DNA from: Escherichia phage CJY920
Sequence record: PQ349265.1
DNA length: 64,000 bases
Reading direction: 5' to 3' (one strand)
A program made the position numbers and the translations under genes. Every line of letters starts with the position of its first letter. Position 1 is the first letter of the stretch. Below, one piece after another: positions 2,987-26,883 of this stretch. The notes beneath the pieces are model-generated. The model was not told the origin of the DNA and made no database searches. It saw nothing but the letters and a program-made list of their open reading frames with translations.

Positions 2987-3229
2987 ATGCATATTGTTTT
3001 ATTTAAACCTACTCCGTATAATGTCAGGAAAAATACTCAATTCAAAGCACTTATTGCAGATACGTGGGAATTGGTGTTAGATATTCCAGCAGAAGAAAGT
3101 CCTCCATTTGGTCGAGTGGAATTTATTAAGTTTGCTGTGCGCCCTACGAAGCGACAGATTCGCCAATGCAAAAGATACTTTCGTAAAATAGTCAAGTTAG
3201 AGAAACAGTTATTGATGCTAGTAAAATAG
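2987..3229 (+). CDS. hypothetical protein (61.4 position)
   Basis: ORF with ATG directly after previous stop; basic C-terminus. Confidence 0.4.
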   Translation: MHIVLFKPTPYNVRKNTQFKALIADTWELVLDIPAEESPPFGRVEFIKFAVRPTKRQIRQCKRYFRKIVKLEKQLLMLVK

Positions 3230-19710: not shown

Positions 19711-21264
19711 GTGATGATTAAGAATGAAATTAAAATTCTGAGCGATATTGAACATATCAAAAAGCGTAGCGGCATGTATATTGGCTCTTCTGCTAATGAA
19801 ATGCATGAGCGCTTTCTGTTTGGTAAATGGGAAAGTGTTCAGTATGTACCTGGTCTTGTTAAGCTTATTGATGAAATTATCGATAACTCAGTAGATGAAG
19901 GTATTCGTACTAAGTTTAAATTCGCAAATAAAATTAGTGTTACTATTAAAAACAATCAAGTAACAGTTGAAGATAACGGTCGCGGTATTCCACAGGCGAT
20001 GGTTAAAACACCTACTGGTGAAGAAATTCCTGGTCCTGTTGCTGCATGGACTATTCCAAAAGCAGGTGGTAACTTTGGTGATGATAAAGAACGCGTCACT
20101 GGCGGTATGAATGGTGTTGGTTCTAGTTTGACAAACATTTTTTCTGTGATGTTTGTCGGTGAAACTGGTGATGGTCAAAATAATATTGTAGTTCGTTGTT
20201 CAAATGGCATGGAAAATAAATCATGGGAAACTATTCCAGGAAAATGGAAAGGAACTCGTGTTACTTTCATTCCTGATTTTATGTCATTTGAAACTAATGA
20301 GCTGTCCCAAGTTTATCTTGACATTACACTAGATCGTCTCCAGACACTTGCAGTAGTTTATCCTGATATTCAATTTACCTTTAATGGTAAAAAGGTTCAG
20401 GGCAATTTTAAGAAATATGCACGCCAATATGATGAGCATGCTATCGTTCAAGAACAAGAAAATTGCTCTATTGCGGTTGGTCGTTCACCGGATGGTTTTC
20501 GTCAATTAACTTATGTGAATAACATTCACACTAAGAATGGTGGCCATCACATTGACTGTGTTATGGATGATATTTGTGAAGACCTTATTCCACAAATCAA
20601 ACGTAAGTTCAAAATTGATGTGACTAAAGCACGCGTTAAAGAATGTTTGACTATCGTTATGTTTGTCCGTGATATGAAAAACATGCGATTTGATTCTCAA
20701 ACTAAAGAGCGTTTGACTTCTCCATTTGGTGAAATCCGTAGTCATATTCAACTTGATGCTAAAAAGATTTCACGTGCTATTCTAAATAATGAAGCAATTC
20801 TAATGCCGATTATTGAAGCTGCTTTGGCTCGTAAATTGGCGGCAGAAAAAGCAGCAGAAACTAAAGCAGCTAAAAAGGCTTCTAAAGCTAAGGTTCATAA
20901 ACATATTAAAGCGAATCTTTGTGGTAAAGATGCTGATACTACTCTTTTCTTGACTGAGGGTGATTCGGCTATCGGATATCTTATTGATGTTCGTGATAAA
21001 GAACTTCACGGTGGTTATCCATTACGTGGTAAAGTTCTCAACAGTTGGGGTATGTCATATGCTGACATACTTAAAAACAAAGAACTGTTTGATATTTGCG
21101 CAATCACTGGATTAGTTCTCGGTGAAAAGGCGTTTGAAGAAAAAGAAGATGGCGAGTGGTTTACTTTCGAACTAAATGGCGATACAATTATCGTAAATGA
21201 AAATGATGAAGTACAGATTAATGGTAAATGGATAACAGTAGGTGAATTACGAAAAAATCTATAA
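19711..21264 (+). CDS. 39: gp39 DNA topoisomerase II large subunit (GyrB-like ATPase)
   Basis: GHKL ATPase motifs (EIIDNSVDE, GLHG-like), Toprim; ends without the C-terminal part encoded by gene 60. Confidence 0.93.
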   Translation: MMIKNEIKILSDIEHIKKRSGMYIGSSANEMHERFLFGKWESVQYVPGLVKLIDEIIDNSVDEGIRTKFKFANKISVTIKNNQVTVEDNGRGIPQAMVKTPTGEEIPGPVAAWTIPKAGGNFGDDKERVTGGMNGVGSSLTNIFSVMFVGETGDGQNNIVVRCSNGMENKSWETIPGKWKGTRVTFIPDFMSFETNELSQVYLDITLDRLQTLAVVYPDIQFTFNGKKVQGNFKKYARQYDEHAIVQEQENCSIAVGRSPDGFRQLTYVNNIHTKNGGHHIDCVMDDICEDLIPQIKRKFKIDVTKARVKECLTIVMFVRDMKNMRFDSQTKERLTSPFGEIRSHIQLDAKKISRAILNNEAILMPIIEAALARKLAAEKAAETKAAKKASKAKVHKHIKANLCGKDADTTLFLTEGDSAIGYLIDVRDKELHGGYPLRGKVLNSWGMSYADILKNKELFDICAITGLVLGEKAFEEKEDGEWFTFELNGDTIIVNENDEVQINGKWITVGELRKNL

Positions 21265-22060
21265 TGACTTAATAGTGCGGGGTAAAACCCGCGTTTCTAA
21301 ATTTAAGGGTGAAATTCATCATATCCTTCCAAGATCAATGGGAGGTTCTGATGATAAAGAAAATTTGGTGAAACTGACTTTTCGTGAACATTTTTTAGCA
21401 CATTTTCTACTATATAAAATTCATCGTAATCGTGAAATGGCATATGCGATGAATAGAATGTTAAACACTGAAAAATATTTACGTTCTAGTAAATTATATG
21501 AAATTGCTAGAATTTACCATCAAAGAGCAGTATCTGAATGGTCAAAAAACTTTATGAAAGATAAAGTTTTAATGAGAAGTATTAAATCGGGTAAATGCGC
21601 CTTATTAATTAAAGGATCATTTAACCCAAAGGAATGGTGCGGTGTTAATAAAGGTGTTAAGCTTCCTGGAATTAAAGGCATGACATGCTTTAAAAATGAA
21701 AAAGGCGAAGTTTTTCGTCTTCATGTTAATGATCCACGCATTAAAGCTGAAAAATTAGTTGGTATTGGAAATACTGTTGCTGCTACTGCAAAAGCAGCTG
21801 AACTTGAAAAAGCGAAACCATGGTATAATAAATCAGCGACAAATCCAGAGGCTGTAAAATTAATACCAAATTTATATGAATGGTACGTCACGAAATATGA
21901 CCCCGATCATTATAAACGAACGGGAGTTGCTAAATGGAAATCAGTTAATAATATAACTGTGAATTCAAAATTATTCGGCCGAGCATTTAATGAATTTAAA
22001 CGCGGTTGGATTCCTGATGAAAAGTTCTATGAGGTGTATAATGAAATTTGTAAAAATTGA
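21242..22060 (+). CDS. mobA: HNH homing endonuclease (MobA-like) inserted between genes 39 and 60
   Basis: HNH motif EIHHILPRSMGGSDDKENLVKLTFREHFLAH; overlaps 39 stop and 60 start. Confidence 0.7.
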   Translation: MNYEKIYNDLIVRGKTRVSKFKGEIHHILPRSMGGSDDKENLVKLTFREHFLAHFLLYKIHRNREMAYAMNRMLNTEKYLRSSKLYEIARIYHQRAVSEWSKNFMKDKVLMRSIKSGKCALLIKGSFNPKEWCGVNKGVKLPGIKGMTCFKNEKGEVFRLHVNDPRIKAEKLVGIGNTVAATAKAAELEKAKPWYNKSATNPEAVKLIPNLYEWYVTKYDPDHYKRTGVAKWKSVNNITVNSKLFGRAFNEFKRGWIPDEKFYEVYNEICKN

Positions 22061-22573
22061 TTCTTCTAGCGTTGATATGAAAAAATATAAATTGCAGAAC
22101 AATGTTCGTCGTTCTATTAAATCCTCTTCAATGAACTATGCGAATGTCGCTATTATGACAGACGCAGATCACGATGGATAGCCTTCGGGCTATCTATAGA
22201 AATACCTCATAATTAAGAGATTATTGGATTAGGTTCTATTTATCCTTCTCTGCTTGGATTTTTTAGTAATTGGCCAGAACTGTTTGAGCAAGGACGAATT
22301 CGCTTTGTCAAAACTCCTGTAATCATCGCTCAGGTTGGTAAAAAACAAGAATGGTTTTATACAGTCGCTGAATATGAGAGTGCTAAAGATGCTCTACCTA
22401 AACATAGTATTCGATACATCAAGGGATTGGGCTCACTTCAGCGGGATGAATATAAAGAAATGATTCAAAACCCTGTGTACGACGTAGTTAAACTTCCTGA
22501 AAATTGGAAAGAACTATTTGAAATGCTCATGGGTAACGACCCTGAACTCCGTAAAGATTGGATGCTAGGATAA
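22041..22573 (+). CDS. 60: gp60 topoisomerase II subunit, translated across a 50-nt bypass (codons 1-46 = 22041..22178, resumes 22229..22573; 160 aa)
   Basis: ANVAIMTDADHDG then UAG; downstream frame LGSIYPSLLGFFSNWPELF... continues the protein; identical layout to T4 gene 60. Confidence 0.9.
22179..22228 (+). other. gene 60 translational bypass (hop) coding gap, 50 nt
   Basis: Take-off GGA 22176-22178, UAG stop, hairpin ggatagccttcgggctatc, landing GGA 22226-22228. Confidence 0.9.
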
Positions 22574-23370
22574 TGAATTATCGTAAAATTTATGATAAAC
22601 TTATCGCTGCGGCTAAAAACCGCAGCACTATTCCTAATTATACTGAAACTCACCATATTTTGCCTAAATCTATGGGCGGGAGTAATGCTAAATCAAATCT
22701 AGTTAAAATGACCCCTAGAGAGCATTTTATCGCCCATTTATTGCTTTATAAAATTCATAAGAACCGTTCTATGCTTATGGCTATTAGAGCTTTTTACATG
22801 GGAGCTAGAAATTCTAGAGATTATGATTGGCTTAAACAAGAATTCTCTAAAGAGCACTCTAGATTTATGAAAGAATGGATTGCTAAAAATGGCAACCCAT
22901 TTAAAGGTAAAAAACATACTAAAGCAACAAGAGAATTAATGTCACATATTGCTTCACAACGTATAGGCGAATTAAATCCATTTTATGGTAAAACTCATAC
23001 GCAAGAAGCAATAGATAAAATAATACAGGCTAACAAGTTATCTTGGGAGAATGGGCGAAAAGCACCTGTAAAAACAAAAGAACACCAGGATAAAATAACT
23101 AAATCAAGAATGGAAACATTTAAAACAAAAGGATTTAAACCATACACTCCTAGGTCAGAAGAAACTAAAGCTAAGACTAGAGAGTTGTATAAATCTAAAT
23201 ATGAAAGAAGGCCTATAAGAATCACAAGTGTAAAAACAGGCGAAACTATTGATTTTAACTATCTTTATGAATTAAGGGAGTATTTAGATATAGGGTCTTC
23301 TAATATATTGAAAGCATTAAATAATCCTAACAGAACCTGCAAAGGTTATAAAATGTGTTGGATGTCCTAA
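22573..23370 (+). CDS. second HNH homing endonuclease with NUMOD3-like repeats, 265 aa
   Basis: ETHHILPKSMGGSNAKSNLVKMTPREHFIAH; repeats NPFKGKKHTKATRELMS / NPFYGKTHTQEAIDKI; ATG overlaps gene 60 stop. Confidence 0.7.
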   Translation: MNYRKIYDKLIAAAKNRSTIPNYTETHHILPKSMGGSNAKSNLVKMTPREHFIAHLLLYKIHKNRSMLMAIRAFYMGARNSRDYDWLKQEFSKEHSRFMKEWIAKNGNPFKGKKHTKATRELMSHIASQRIGELNPFYGKTHTQEAIDKIIQANKLSWENGRKAPVKTKEHQDKITKSRMETFKTKGFKPYTPRSEETKAKTRELYKSKYERRPIRITSVKTGETIDFNYLYELREYLDIGSSNILKALNNPNRTCKGYKMCWMS

Positions 23371-23397
23371 GCTCCTTCGGGAGCTTCATTTTAATTT
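23370..23397 (+). terminator. rho-independent terminator-like hairpin
   Basis: agctccttcgggagctt + cattttaatttt. Confidence 0.5.
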
Positions 23398-23486
23398 TAA
23401 TAAGGCTTAATTATGAAAGTTATGTTTATCCCATCTCGTGCAGTCCCATTTAATCCTGACCTTCGCAAAGAATGGATGAGCCAATA

Positions 23487-23516
23487 GTTTACTTTACCAC
23501 AAGGATGTGGTATAAT
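23487..23516 (+). promoter_or_regulatory. early promoter
   Basis: gtttactttaccacaaggatgtggtataat. Confidence 0.55.
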
Positions 23517-23541
23517 TAATTGGGCAAATGAGGATATTGAA

Positions 23542-23745
23542 ATGAAATCATATAAAGTAAATTTAGAACTTTTTGATAAAGCAGTTCATCGAGAATATAG
23601 AATCATTCAACGCTTTTTCGATATGGGAGAAGCCGAAGAATTTAAAAACCGCTTTAAAGATATTAGAGATAAAATTCAATCCGACACCGCAACTAAAGAC
23701 GAACTACTAGAAGTTGCTGAAGTTATTAAGCGTAATATGAATTAA
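23542..23745 (+). CDS. hypothetical protein (rIIA.1 position), 67 aa
   Basis: ORF directly upstream of rIIA. Confidence 0.5.
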
Positions 23746-23755
23746 TGAGGAAATT

Positions 23756-25933
23756 ATGATTATCACCACTGAAAAAGAAACAATTCTTGGTAATGGTTCT
23801 AAATCAAAAGCATTTAGCATCACAGCATCTCCTAAAGTATTTAAAATTCTGTCATCTGATTTGTATACAAACAAGATTCGCGCAGTAGTTCGTGAATTGA
23901 TTACCAACATGATTGATGCCCATGCTCTTAATGGAAATCCTGAAAAATTTATCATTCAAGTTCCTGGACGTTTAGATCCACGATTTGTTTGCCGAGATTT
24001 TGGTCCGGGTATGAGCGATTTTGATATTCAAGGTGATGATAATTCTCCTGGGTTGTATAATTCATACTTTAGTTCATCTAAGGCTGAATCTAACGATTTC
24101 ATTGGTGGATTTGGTTTAGGTTCTAAATCTCCGTTTAGTTATACTGATACATTTAGTATTACTTCATATCATAAAGGCGAAATTCGTGGTTATGTAGCTT
24201 ACATGGATGGTGATGGTCCACAGATTAAACCTACATTCGTAAAAGAAATGGGTCCAAATGATAAAACTGGTATTGAAATCGTAGTTCCAGTTGAAGAAAA
24301 AGATTTTAGAAACTTTGCTTATGAAGTTTCTTATATCATGCGACCATTCAAAGATTTGGCTATCATTAATGGTCTTGACCGTGAAATTGATTATTTTCCG
24401 GATTTTGATGACTACTACGGCGTAAATCCAGAAAGATACTGGCCAGATCGTGGTGGATTGTATGCTATCTATGGTGGTATTGTTTATCCTATTGATGGTG
24501 TTATTAGAGACCGTAACTGGTTAAGCATTCGCAATGAAGTGAATTACATTAAGTTTCCAATGGGTTCACTTGATATTGCTCCATCACGTGAGGCTCTTTC
24601 ACTAGATGATCGTACTCGTAAAAATATTATTGAGCGTGTTAAAGAGCTTAGTGAGAAAGCATTTAATGAAGATGTAAAACGATTTAAAGAATCTACATCT
24701 CCTCGTCATACATACCGTGAATTGATGAAGATGGGATATTCTGCTCGAGATTATATGATTAGTAATTCGGTCAAATTCACGACTAAAAATCTGTCATATA
24801 AGAAGATGCAAAGCATGTTTGAACCTGACAGTAAGTTATGCAATGCAGGGGTTGTGTATGAAGTAAATCTTGACCCTCGACTGAAGCGCATTAAGCAAAG
24901 CCATGAAACTTCAGCCGTTGCGTCAAGCTATCGTCTGTTTGGTATTAATACGACAAAAATTAATATTGTTATTGATAATACTAAAAATCGTGTTAATATT
25001 GTCCGTGGATTAGCACGTGCATTAGATGATAGCGAATTTAATAACACCTTAAATATTCATCACAATGAGCGTCTTCTGTTTATTAATCCGGAAGTAGAAT
25101 CACAGATTGATTTACTCCCTGATATTATGGCAATGTTTGAAAGTGATGAAGTTAACATTCATTATTTGTCAGAAATTGAAGCTTTAGTTAAAAGTTATAT
25201 TCCAAAGGCAGTAAAAAGTACAGCTCCTCGTCCTAAAACTGCCACTGCATTTAAGTTTGAAATTAAAGACGGGCGTTGGGAAAAAGAGGAATTGTTTACG
25301 CTCACATCAGAAGCAGATGAAATTACTGGTTATGTAGCATACATGCATCGTTCTGATATTTTCTCTATAGATGGTACTACATCGCTTTGTCATCCATCTA
25401 CGAATATTTTGATTCGTATGGCTAATCTTATTGGCATTAATGAATTTTATGTTATTCGTCCGCTTTTGCAGAAAAAGGTAAAAGAACTTGGTCAGTGCCA
25501 ATGTATTTTTGAAACTTTGCGTGATTTATATGTAGATGCTTTTGATGATGTAGATTATGATAAGTATGTAGGTTATTCAAGTTCAGCTAAACGATATATT
25601 GATAAAATTATCAAGTATCCTGAGTTAGATTTTATGATGAAGTACTTCAGTGTAGATGAAGTTTCTGAAGAATATACACGACTCGCTAATATGGTTAGTT
25701 CATTACAGGGTGTATATTTCAACGGTGGAAAAGATACCATCGGTCATGACATCTGGACAGTAACTAATCTTTTTGATGTATTATCAAATAATGCTTCAAA
25801 AAACAGTGATAAAATGGTTGCTGAGTTTACCAAGAAATTCCGTATTGTTTCCGACTTCATCGGTTATCGCAATTCTTTAAGTGATGATGAAGTTTCCCAA
25901 ATCGCTAAAACTATGAAGGCCCTTGCGGCCTAA
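23756..25933 (+). CDS. rIIA: RIIA protein, 725 aa
   Basis: Length 725 aa, N-terminal GHKL-like region; followed by rIIB. Confidence 0.9.
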
Positions 25934-25944
25934 TAAGGAAAATT

Positions 25945-26883
25945 ATGTACAATATTAAATGCCTGACCAAAAACGAACAAGCTGAAATTGTCAAACTGTA
26001 TTCAAGTGGTAATTACACTCAGCAGGAATTAGCTTATTGGAAGGATGTATCGGTTGACACAATCCGTCGTGTTTTGAAAAATGCTGAAGAAGCTAAACGC
26101 CCTAAAGTTACTATTAGCGGTGATATTACAGTTAAAGTTAATAGCGATGCAGTTATTGCTCCAGCTGCTAAATCTGACATTATTTGGAATGCATCTAAAA
26201 AATTCATTTCAATTACTGTTGACGGTGTAACTTATAACGCAACTCCTAATACTCATTCAAACTTCCAGGAAATTCTTAATCTGCTTGTAGCGGATAAGTT
26301 GGAAGAAGCGGCACAAAAAATTAATGTTCGTCGCGCTGTTGAAAAATATATTTCCGGTGATGTTCGAATTGAAGGTGGAAGCTTGTTCTATCAAAACATT
26401 GAATTGCGGTCTGGTTTAGTTGATCGTATTCTCGATTCGATGGAAAAAGGCGAAAACTTTGAATTTTATTTTCCGTTCCTGGAAAATCTGTTGGAAAACC
26501 CAAGCCAAAAAGCAGTATCTCGACTCTTTGATTTCTTGGTAGCAAACGATATTGAAATTACAGAAGACGGCTACTTCTATGCTTGGAAAGTAGTTCGTAG
26601 CAATTACTTTGACTGTCATTCAAATACTTTTGATAACAGCCCTGGTAAAGTAGTTAAAATGCCACGTACTCGTGTGAATGACGATGATACACAAACTTGT
26701 TCTCGTGGTCTGCATGTGTGTTCTAAATCTTATATTCGTCACTTTGGCAGTTCAACCAGTCGAGTTGTAAAAGTTAAAGTGCATCCGCGTGATGTAGTAT
26801 CAATTCCGATTGATTACAACGATGCTAAAATGCGTACCTGCCAATACGAAGTAGTTGAAGACGTTACTGAACAATTTAAATAA
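25945..26883 (+). CDS. rIIB: RIIB protein, 312 aa
   Basis: Length 312 aa and position after rIIA. Confidence 0.9.
   Translation: MYNIKCLTKNEQAEIVKLYSSGNYTQQELAYWKDVSVDTIRRVLKNAEEAKRPKVTISGDITVKVNSDAVIAPAAKSDIIWNASKKFISITVDGVTYNATPNTHSNFQEILNLLVADKLEEAAQKINVRRAVEKYISGDVRIEGGSLFYQNIELRSGLVDRILDSMEKGENFEFYFPFLENLLENPSQKAVSRLFDFLVANDIEITEDGYFYAWKVVRSNYFDCHSNTFDNSPGKVVKMPRTRVNDDDTQTCSRGLHVCSKSYIRHFGSSTSRVVKVKVHPRDVVSIPIDYNDAKMRTCQYEVVEDVTEQFK

Follow-up and report, generated by a model that had tools for sequence, protein, structure and literature searches.

Two predicted HNH endonuclease genes flank topoisomerase gene 60 in a T4-type Escherichia phage

The topoisomerase genes 39 and 60 of phage T4 are a textbook case of a selfish endonuclease shaping both gene structure and translation, the latter by a ribosome 'hop'. 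The T4 MobA element and its gene 60 bypass were reportedly described by Bonocora et al. in 2011. Elements of 1097-1106 nucleotides (nt) have the layout gp39 C-terminal extension, mobA, gp60 N-terminal extension, homR and bypass (Manning & Atkins 2022, bioRxiv 10.1101/2022.08.31.505936); MobA nicks its target and the bypass confers immunity (Bonocora et al. 2011, as cited in the same preprint), and T4 mobA has a GUG start (Edgell, Gibb & Belfort 2010, PMC2988022). Two processes are established for T4 endonucleases, cleavage at a distance with co-conversion and illegitimate repair through microhomology (PMC2988022). Here we analyse this locus in a 64,000-nt stretch of Escherichia phage CJY920 (PQ349265.1; hereafter the window), where gene 60 lies between mobA and a second HNH gene at 22573-23370, for which we coined the name HNH2.

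The favoured reading, including the history proposed below, is that two selfish elements, independent of each other, lie on either side of gene 60 and that their genes belong to one protein family, the T4 'Mob' HNH proteins; we consider it probably correct. It draws on exact insertion boundaries, a patchy distribution, near-identity across genera, deletion scars, a common right junction and differing left breakpoints. By sequence, the left-hand gene is T4's mobA within the MobA/bypass element and is the already known half of the finding. The window phage is a member of Tequatrovirus; its nearest catalogued relatives are ~94-96% identical across the window's first 19 kb, and the whole 21000-23800 stretch was found in no record of a phage collection of 50,697 genomes. 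The main features, all on the + strand, are:

19714-21264 (stop 21262-21264), +, gene 39, open reading frame (ORF) for the N-terminal part of the topoisomerase II large subunit
21132-22237, +, MobA mobile element, ~1.1 kb: gp39 C-terminal extension, mobA, gp60 N-terminal extension, homR and 50-nt bypass
21242-22060, +, mobA, intact HNH homing endonuclease ORF with a GTG start, 272 amino acids, matching phrog_655
22041-22181, +, gene 60 first segment, 46 codons, with take-off GGA at 22176-22178 and UAG at 22179-22181
22179-22228, +, 50-nt translational bypass gap with the landing GGA at its end, annotated as a misc_feature in T4
22229-22573, +, gene 60 second segment, chimeric, C-terminus ...RKDWMLG*
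22573-23370, +, HNH2, ORF for a free-standing HNH + NUMOD3 homing endonuclease, 265 amino acids
22565-23364, +, 800-nt HNH2 insertion relative to empty Mosigvirus alleles, with TTGGATG flanks at 22558-22564 and 23358-23364
23369-23396, +, intrinsic terminator hairpin AAGCTCCTTCGGGAGCTT plus T-run, imported with the cassette

The HNH2 insertion, its carriers and its probable transfer

Comparison with Mosigvirus alleles that lack HNH2 defines the insertion to the nucleotide. The empty alleles NHEP36 and LF82-1 read ...TGGATG followed directly by TCCTAAGCTCC; the filled alleles of phi25-307 and the window read ...TGGATG, then CTAGGATAATG...TGTTGGATG, then TCCTAAGCTCC. The empty Mosigvirus gene ends ...GA(T/A)TGGATG TCC TAA and is followed by the terminator hairpin and a gene of 366 amino acids, and the filled allele reads ...GATTGGATG, then CTAGGATAATGAAT...TGTGTTGGATG, then TCCTAA. 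HNH2 is thus placed after the TGGATG in the penultimate codons of the topoisomerase gene, whose C-terminus it rewrites to L-G-stop; the new TAA shares one base with the HNH2 ATG (TAATG), and HNH2 closes with a last codon, stop and terminator that are native to the end of the Mosigvirus topoisomerase gene. An earlier note, made from the sequence alone, had a NUMOD3-bearing HNH gene following gene 60 directly, its start overlapping the gene 60 stop: the ORF, the domain and the overlap all hold, and the gene proves to sit inside the last codons of gene 60 instead of behind them. The imported hairpin, at 23369-23386, is the only terminator-like site seen; it is an annotated terminator in fPS-90, and empty Mosigvirus alleles have the same sequence 3′ of their topoisomerase stop. 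At this one exact site, filled, empty and scar alleles all occur, as is expected of a free-standing homing endonuclease gene. The T4 reference NC_000866 lacks window positions 22565-23450, in agreement with the earlier note, which knew of no second endonuclease here in T4, and other T4-type records align as two pieces over 68% of 21000-23800.

HNH2 contains NUMOD3 (PF07460) in two stretches, at 36.5 bits against a cut-off of 20.4. Its residues 1-71 are 61% identical to MobA and the remainder has no similarity to it; the protein matches phrog_655, the PHROG family of MobA, with an E-value of 1e-55. N42, H51 and H55 do not vary among 32 homologues, and H27/H28 hardly do. An AlphaFold2 model (mean predicted local distance difference test score 89.5) has strands at 25-28 and 43-46 followed by a helix at 48-62, and its top fold match in PDB is I-HmuI (1u3e; Foldseek probability 1.0, E 4e-3), all of which places HNH2 in the HNH (beta-beta-alpha-metal) superfamily; a sequence search of solved structures gave only a marginal match to McrA. 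In catalogued phages, no paralogue of HNH2 is closer than MobD and MobE (~44% identity, confined to the N-terminal 126-130 residues). The only trace of HNH2 in full-text literature searches was a single annotation line in the paper on the phiC120 genome (PMC8022965), and the MobA survey of Manning & Atkins (bioRxiv 10.1101/2022.08.31.505936) does not mention it. By its sequence, HNH2 can be added to the Mob family of free-standing HNH homing endonucleases as a new and uncharacterised member with predicted nuclease activity.

The gene is present in 27 of ~685 matching T-even records, at 98.4-99.8% DNA identity and annotated 'homing endonuclease'. Such patchiness bears out the suggestion of the earlier note that HNH2 is an additional insertion, and with so few carriers the gene is not conserved at this site across T4-like phages, the finding that the note had named as one that would speak against it. 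Carriers include BYEP01, F1, FN, fPS-90 and FL12 in Tequatrovirus and phi25-307, the AV1xx series, phiE142, phiC120 and p000v in Mosigvirus. All 27 have an unsplit topoisomerase gene without mobA or bypass and align only 3′ of the bypass position; the three that were inspected in full have a gene for 605-606 amino acids. Between the two genera the cassette is 99-100% identical and the adjoining topoisomerase gene 63-88%, a pattern of recent horizontal spread. The HNH2 protein of the window is 100% identical to the copies in AV115, phi25-307, FN and BYEP01, and the identical full-length protein is found on 47 contigs; 71 blocks of an assembly collection contain the HNH2 protein.

Decay is also visible. 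Six Mosigvirus genomes (LF82-4, OLB35, TH12, phiEC1, TH58 and CCU7) have in common a deletion scar, ...TGGATGCTTGGTTAATTGATAGATGTCCTAA, in which the HNH2 ORF is lost and the rewritten topoisomerase end is kept. The 41-member HNH2 cluster includes short copies of 116-143 amino acids; the gene is split into 143 + 116 amino acids in AV118, and fragments of 121 and 143 amino acids occur in Logan contigs.

The sole full-length relatives outside this 98-100% cluster are proteins of 41-45% identity from metagenome assemblies. The contigs that encode two of them, P0002 and P0003 (45%), are also T4-like, and on both the HNH2-like gene lies at the 3′ end of an unsplit gene for the topoisomerase large subunit. 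On contig L044 its GTG start spans the topoisomerase stop just 3′ of TGGATG—the same insertion point—and the gene is followed by the remnant AGAGTGGATGAATCAATAG (KEWMNQ*). Because these distant relatives occupy the topoisomerase 3′ end too, the HNH2 lineage appears tied to that locus in at least three diverged T4-like groups. On contig L047 (3467-3500) the HNH2-like gene begins 34 nt 3′ of an unmodified topoisomerase stop, a third mode of attachment to this locus, and a hairpin (GGAGGATA-TTTC-TATCCTCC) before it would sequester its ribosome-binding site. Nuclease-type genes were also seen at the other end of the topoisomerase gene: in AV115 and AV114 (L014 and L016, 1502-2185) a gene for a 227-amino-acid NUMOD3 protein lies directly upstream and overlaps the topoisomerase start, and on L044 (981-1688) a 235-amino-acid protein with an endonuclease VII domain is encoded directly upstream of the unsplit gene. 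Nuclease-type genes seem to have a hot spot in the topoisomerase large-subunit gene, at its start, middle and end.

How the cassette entered Tequatrovirus can be read from its right-hand side, where the following features lie:

23371-23461, +, Mosigvirus passenger DNA: intergenic region and first 16 codons (ATG at 23413) of the 366-amino-acid gene
23456-23461, +, CTGACC microhomology at the right junction
23462-23487, +, remnant of the recipient's topoisomerase 3′ end, its last 26 nt, ...LRKEWMSQ*

The passenger DNA is identical to phi25-307 and NHEP36 through 23461 and divergent beyond, and all Tequatrovirus copies, the window included, have one common right junction with Mosigvirus DNA. Since this junction is illegitimate and common to all, it points to a single transfer of HNH2 from Mosigvirus to Tequatrovirus. 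In the history that we propose, HNH2 would be at home in Mosigvirus and would have entered Tequatrovirus once, through break repair, by homologous invasion on the left and an illegitimate join at the CTGACC microhomology on the right; in entering, it would have brought 97 nt of Mosigvirus DNA along, and the recipient gene end would survive as a duplicated remnant. We infer that the recipient was broken somewhere upstream of the last 11 codons of its topoisomerase gene. A homologous left and a microhomologous right end is the form that illegitimate double-strand break repair yields in T4 (PMC2988022).

The duplication of the gene end is imperfect: positions 3049-3076 of the T4 sequence (L001) align to both 22537-22564 and 23451-23478. 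It was considered as a target-site duplication and rejected, being a remnant of illegitimate recombination that occurs in Tequatrovirus copies only. The fusion of the Mosigvirus gene start to the old Tequatrovirus topoisomerase end leaves a chimeric ORF of 24 codons at 23413-23487 (MKVMFIPSRAVPFNPDLRKEWMSQ*), almost certainly a by-product of the illegitimate junction and not a gene. To the right of the junction the T4-type sequence resumes, with 97.8% identity to T4 over 23488-23745:

23488-23745, +, unchanged T4-type right flank with a promoter-like site (23488-23516) and rIIA.1 (23542-23745)
23756-25933, +, rIIA, T4-type early-gene block
25945-26883, +, rIIB, T4-type early-gene block

The recoded patch and the proposed activity of HNH2

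Two groups of substitutions distinguish the topoisomerase end of HNH2 carriers:

22438-22456, +, cluster A, recoded patch LEKSEYRE to LQRDEYKE, proposed target and immunity determinant
22516-22558, +, cluster B, donor-type substitutions GDNADLRKEW to GNDPELRKDW

LF82-1, the closest naive Mosigvirus allele, differs from the HNH2-linked allele of phi25-307 at 52 sites in 1808 nt of the topoisomerase gene; 21 of these fall in the last 156 nt and 10 within the 24 nt at 22433-22456 (permutation p≤2e-4). Naive alleles from each of the two genera have LEKSEYRE in common (T4, RB14, LF82-1 and another ten T4-type contigs), and the recoded cluster A is present in all HNH2-bearing alleles fetched. Cluster B is separable from HNH2: an independent 169-kb NCBI contig, L013 (GCA_041350275.1), keeps HNH2 and cluster A and has a T4-type cluster B. 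Two genomes without HNH2 isolate cluster A in turn. JM17 (Mosigvirus) has cluster A alone, and Shigella phage SP21535 (Tequatrovirus) has a donor-type tract at 22391-22486, approximately centred on cluster A and flanked left and right by native sequence. Among the best matches none had cluster B by itself, and the smallest tract common to all carriers is 22408-22459.

These patterns make cluster A a candidate target and immunity site of HNH2, a reading that we hold tentatively, at somewhat less than an even chance. HNH2 would nick or cut alleles lacking it at or near the LEKSEYRE codons, 110-130 nt upstream of the insertion; the recoded LQRDEYKE patch would make carriers immune, in parallel with homR and the bypass of MobA, and patch-only alleles would be repair products or resistant alleles that had not gained the gene. 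A cleavage site at the LEKSEYRE codons is the prediction by which this can be tested.

The strongest alternative is that the target spans the insertion point itself (TGGATG/TCCTAA in Mosigvirus), as it does for many intron-encoded enzymes, so that immunity comes from the split site and clusters A and B are mere co-converted donor polymorphisms. The insertion is exact, always at one dinucleotide, and the distant relative on L044 uses the same TGGATG point; NHEP36, with donor clusters, an intact junction and no HNH2, could be the ancestral host allele, and the patch region varies naturally in distant phages. Tequatrovirus carriers, however, keep an intact native junction CTGACCTTCGCAAAGAATGGATGAGCCAATAGTTTAC (23456-23493) 3′ of HNH2, so a junction-centred target in that genus would be cut by its own enzyme; moreover, the junctions of the two genera differ in their right half, and the patch-only mosaics JM17 and SP21535, together with L013, single out cluster A. 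We regard a target at the junction as possible and rather unlikely.

Several observations weigh against cluster A as the target or against the wider reading of HNH2 as a mobile endonuclease. NHEP36 has both donor-type clusters and no HNH2, by precise loss or as the ancestral host allele, and the mosaic genomes are subject to an ascertainment bias, since the tract itself served as the query that found them. The GLGSL-xxxEYxx segment is variable among distant T4-like topoisomerases, so the variant motifs of L044 and L047 add little; a replicate of the patch pattern was sought through L044, which has no close catalogued relative (≤77% identity), and a protein search from its topoisomerase C-terminus returned mostly fragments. 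Pfam HNH models score HNH2 at 16-17 bits, below their curated cut-offs of 21-27, and the HNH call therefore rests on alignment, PHROG match and fold. T-even phages also recombine freely, so mosaics could arise without a nuclease.

That last point underlies a second alternative, that HNH2 is now an inactive or domesticated passenger and that its spread and the mosaic in the window reflect general T-even recombination alone. Here one may cite the mobA of the T4 reference, annotated as defective, the split and degenerate copies of HNH2, and mosaicism that also occurs with no endonuclease gene nearby (patch 1 of SP21535). Against it, HNH2 retains its catalytic residues, and its protein sequence does not differ between two genera (100% identity) whose flanks are 63-88% identical; presence, scar and empty alleles recur at one exact site, which is the signature of the homing-endonuclease life cycle; and the illegitimate intergeneric junction implies break repair, not homologous exchange. 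We consider an inactive passenger improbable, and infer instead that HNH2 has nuclease activity, nicking or cutting alleles that lack it.

Translation of HNH2 may be restrained. Its ribosome-binding site, UAGGA, lies two bases from the AUG and is predicted to pair with 22630-22635, and the fold at the start is more stable than 200 of 200 shuffles (z = -3.8). The predicted pairing and the overlap of the AUG with the gene 60 stop suggest weak, coupled or structure-limited translation, which has also been discussed for other T4 endonuclease genes (PMC2988022).

The CGT-to-AAA change in cluster A also creates TATAAAGA (22451-22458), one mismatch from the T4 late-promoter box TATAAATA. Late transcription is a feature of several T4 endonuclease genes, and the patch might accordingly be a late promoter for HNH2, 115 nt upstream of its ATG, and not a target change. 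The mismatch falls at a conserved position of the box, however, the seven other substitutions of the cluster (GAAAAGTCA to CAGCGGGAT) are left unexplained, and the patch persists in genomes without HNH2; a promoter role is very improbable.

The MobA element and the origin of the combined locus

The left-hand element is that of T4 in all essentials. Gene 39 is 96-97% identical to T4, as is the 39/mobA/60 region as a whole, and over 21300-22230 T4 and ~40 other records match at 99-100%, several T4-type phages at 100%. In related contigs the gene 39 product is called as 516 amino acids with HATPase_c/DNA_gyraseB. The last ~43 codons of gene 39 (from 21132) are the C-terminal tail contributed by the element, and the mobA start overlaps the gene 39 end. 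MobA matches phrog_655 'homing endonuclease' with an E-value of 2.5e-57, and the exact 272-amino-acid protein is on record in 100 blocks of an assembly collection. The first segment of gene 60 translates to MKFVKIDSSS...DADHDG*, identical to T4; the bypass at 22176-22228 (take-off GGA, UAG, hairpin and landing GGA) is identical to T4 base for base, and joining the two segments in translation yields full-length gp60. Unsplit alleles (RB14 '60plus39', BYEP01 and Mosigvirus) have neither 21132-22130 nor the bypass; within the element they align to the homR stretch alone, at 22131-22175, with 82% identity over 22133-22177. This homR is a diverged replacement of a deleted host segment, with 82% identity to BYEP01. 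The MobA element is identified by three features together: a ~1.1-kb insert that interrupts the large-subunit gene of the topoisomerase in its Toprim region, the signals of the 50-nt gap, and an intact ORF with nuclease activity predicted from sequence. The earlier note had called this HNH gene MobA-like from its position and motif and had likened the split topoisomerase, bypass and endonuclease to a mobile cassette; both ideas stand, the gene being T4's mobA in its known element.

Some side observations concern this element. The alignment of the T4 reference NC_000866 with window positions 21374-21581 shows about a dozen single-base insertions in mobA; that reference annotates only a 37-codon 'defective' mobA and ORF 60.1, and T4T and many relatives have the intact 272-amino-acid gene. 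The 'ELRK' at the ends of both gp39 and gp60 was considered and rejected as meaningful: the gp39 tail is the mobA 5′ end in another frame. SP21535 has a second isolated Mosigvirus-type patch at the equivalents of ~22171-22297, over the MobA target region, so that its two foreign patches coincide with the two endonuclease-associated sites. At the equivalents of 22160-22177, BYEP01 and the contig L021 have the synonymous codons GAC GCA GAT CAC GAT, as in T4 homR, and in the MobA nick region they match neither RB14 nor Mosigvirus, though unsplit and without mobA; these codons could reflect a past MobA 'hit and run' or an HNH2-driven erasure of a MobA element.

The window combines the two elements, and the switch between them falls at a single place:

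22403-22407, strand not applicable, recombination (co-conversion) breakpoint interval between T4-type and donor-type sequence, defined by informative sites

Up to 22402, mobA and the bypass included, the sequence is T4-type; from 22408 to 23461, through HNH2, it is identical to the BYEP01/Mosigvirus type. In BYEP01, fPS-90 and L021 the left switch lies instead at ~21131/22131, about the mobA insertion point. Contig L013, located by exact-protein look-up of HNH2, has the same layout of mobA, bypass and HNH2 as the window and the same left switch at 22403-22407, followed by a T4-type block again at 22471-22558; the two are 96.9% identical, with 236 differing sites over 7.8 kb. Three distinct left endpoints and the internal mosaic of L013 are as expected of co-conversion and are equally compatible with plain recombination. 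The HNH2 cassette would have recombined into a T4-type genome already carrying mobA and the bypass, with the left exchange between the two elements at 22403-22407, and the window would be the product expected of a co-infection by a mobA-bearing and an HNH2-bearing phage.

Catalogued genomes with both genes were not found: none of the 40 mobA-bearing and none of the 27 HNH2-bearing catalogue records has the other gene, a megablast search with the bypass-HNH2 junction gave no second genome among 50,697 phage records, and the exact pattern of bypass, N360-372 and HNH2 start occurs in none of the IMG/VR or JGI metagenome contigs. With 40 mobA and 27 HNH2 records among ~685, however, only ~1.6 doubles are expected by chance, so their absence from the catalogue is uninformative. 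An assembly chimera of two co-occurring phages, for which one could cite a breakpoint within homology, where assemblers may switch templates, and the absence of the combination from catalogued phage genomes, is hardly credible beside the independent L013, with its identical layout and breakpoint, 236 differences and own extra T4-type block. Because L013 has the same layout, the double arrangement is real; the stacking of mobA and HNH2 around gene 60 is rare but unsurprising.

Relation to known endonuclease systems

The locus reveals no new mechanism or kind of system; what is rare about it is that two mobile elements, each of an ordinary kind, are stacked. Its interest is that one host gene is targeted by a second, related but distinct endonuclease lineage, with naive, invaded, frameshifted, deleted and patch-only resistant alleles all visible among sequenced phages and a cassette that appears to have crossed a genus boundary through microhomology-mediated break repair. 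As a two-element system found in nature, it lends itself to the study of competition or cooperation between homing endonucleases whose conversion tracts overlap and which meet at a single essential gene, no more than a few hundred base pairs from it. A bolder proposal, which we put forward as speculative and doubtful, is that HNH2 founds a Mob-type lineage specialised on the topoisomerase 3′ end, with the 52-nt patch at 22408-22459 (110-160 nt away) as its immunity determinant and with MobA and HNH2 as one doubly driven module. If so, the patch would be a protein-coding counterpart of the MobA bypass, and gene 60 would be part of a doubly driven module of ~2.3 kb (21132-23461) that is copied as a unit into naive co-infecting T-even phages; in other crosses, the conversion tract of either element could erase or import the other.

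The MobA element itself is the nearest comparison. Both it and HNH2 comprise a Mob-type HNH gene in the same host gene that overlaps the host ORF, rewrites the end of a host protein and is accompanied by a diverged replacement of adjacent host coding sequence. HNH2 differs in lying ~500 bp further downstream, in neither splitting the protein nor having a bypass, and in having NUMOD3 repeats as its C-terminal DNA-binding part. MobD (beside uvsW) and MobE (beside nrdA/nrdB) of T4 are, like HNH2, free-standing HNH proteins and its closest catalogued paralogues, but they occupy other loci and have other C-terminal regions; for MobE, homing as a free-standing endonuclease is proven, with cleavage at some distance from its gene (PMC2988022).

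I-HmuI of phage SPO1 resembles the HNH2 model in its extended form, in which DNA-binding modules follow an N-terminal HNH domain; it differs in being intron-encoded where HNH2 is free-standing, and the match has only 19% identity over 89 aligned columns and a low template-modelling score. Because I-HmuI, the top fold match, is a nicking enzyme, HNH2 may nick rather than cut both strands, and nicking has been reported for MobA (bioRxiv 10.1101/2022.08.31.505936). For the proposed mechanism the likeness is to SegG, whose intronless homing involves distal cleavage (Liu et al. 2003, as cited in PMC2988022): distal cleavage, gap repair from the carrier, co-conversion, and conversion of the site without gain of the gene. 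SegG, though, is a GIY-YIG enzyme acting on gene 32, whereas the candidate site of HNH2 is read from the patterns of alleles at the end of gene 60.

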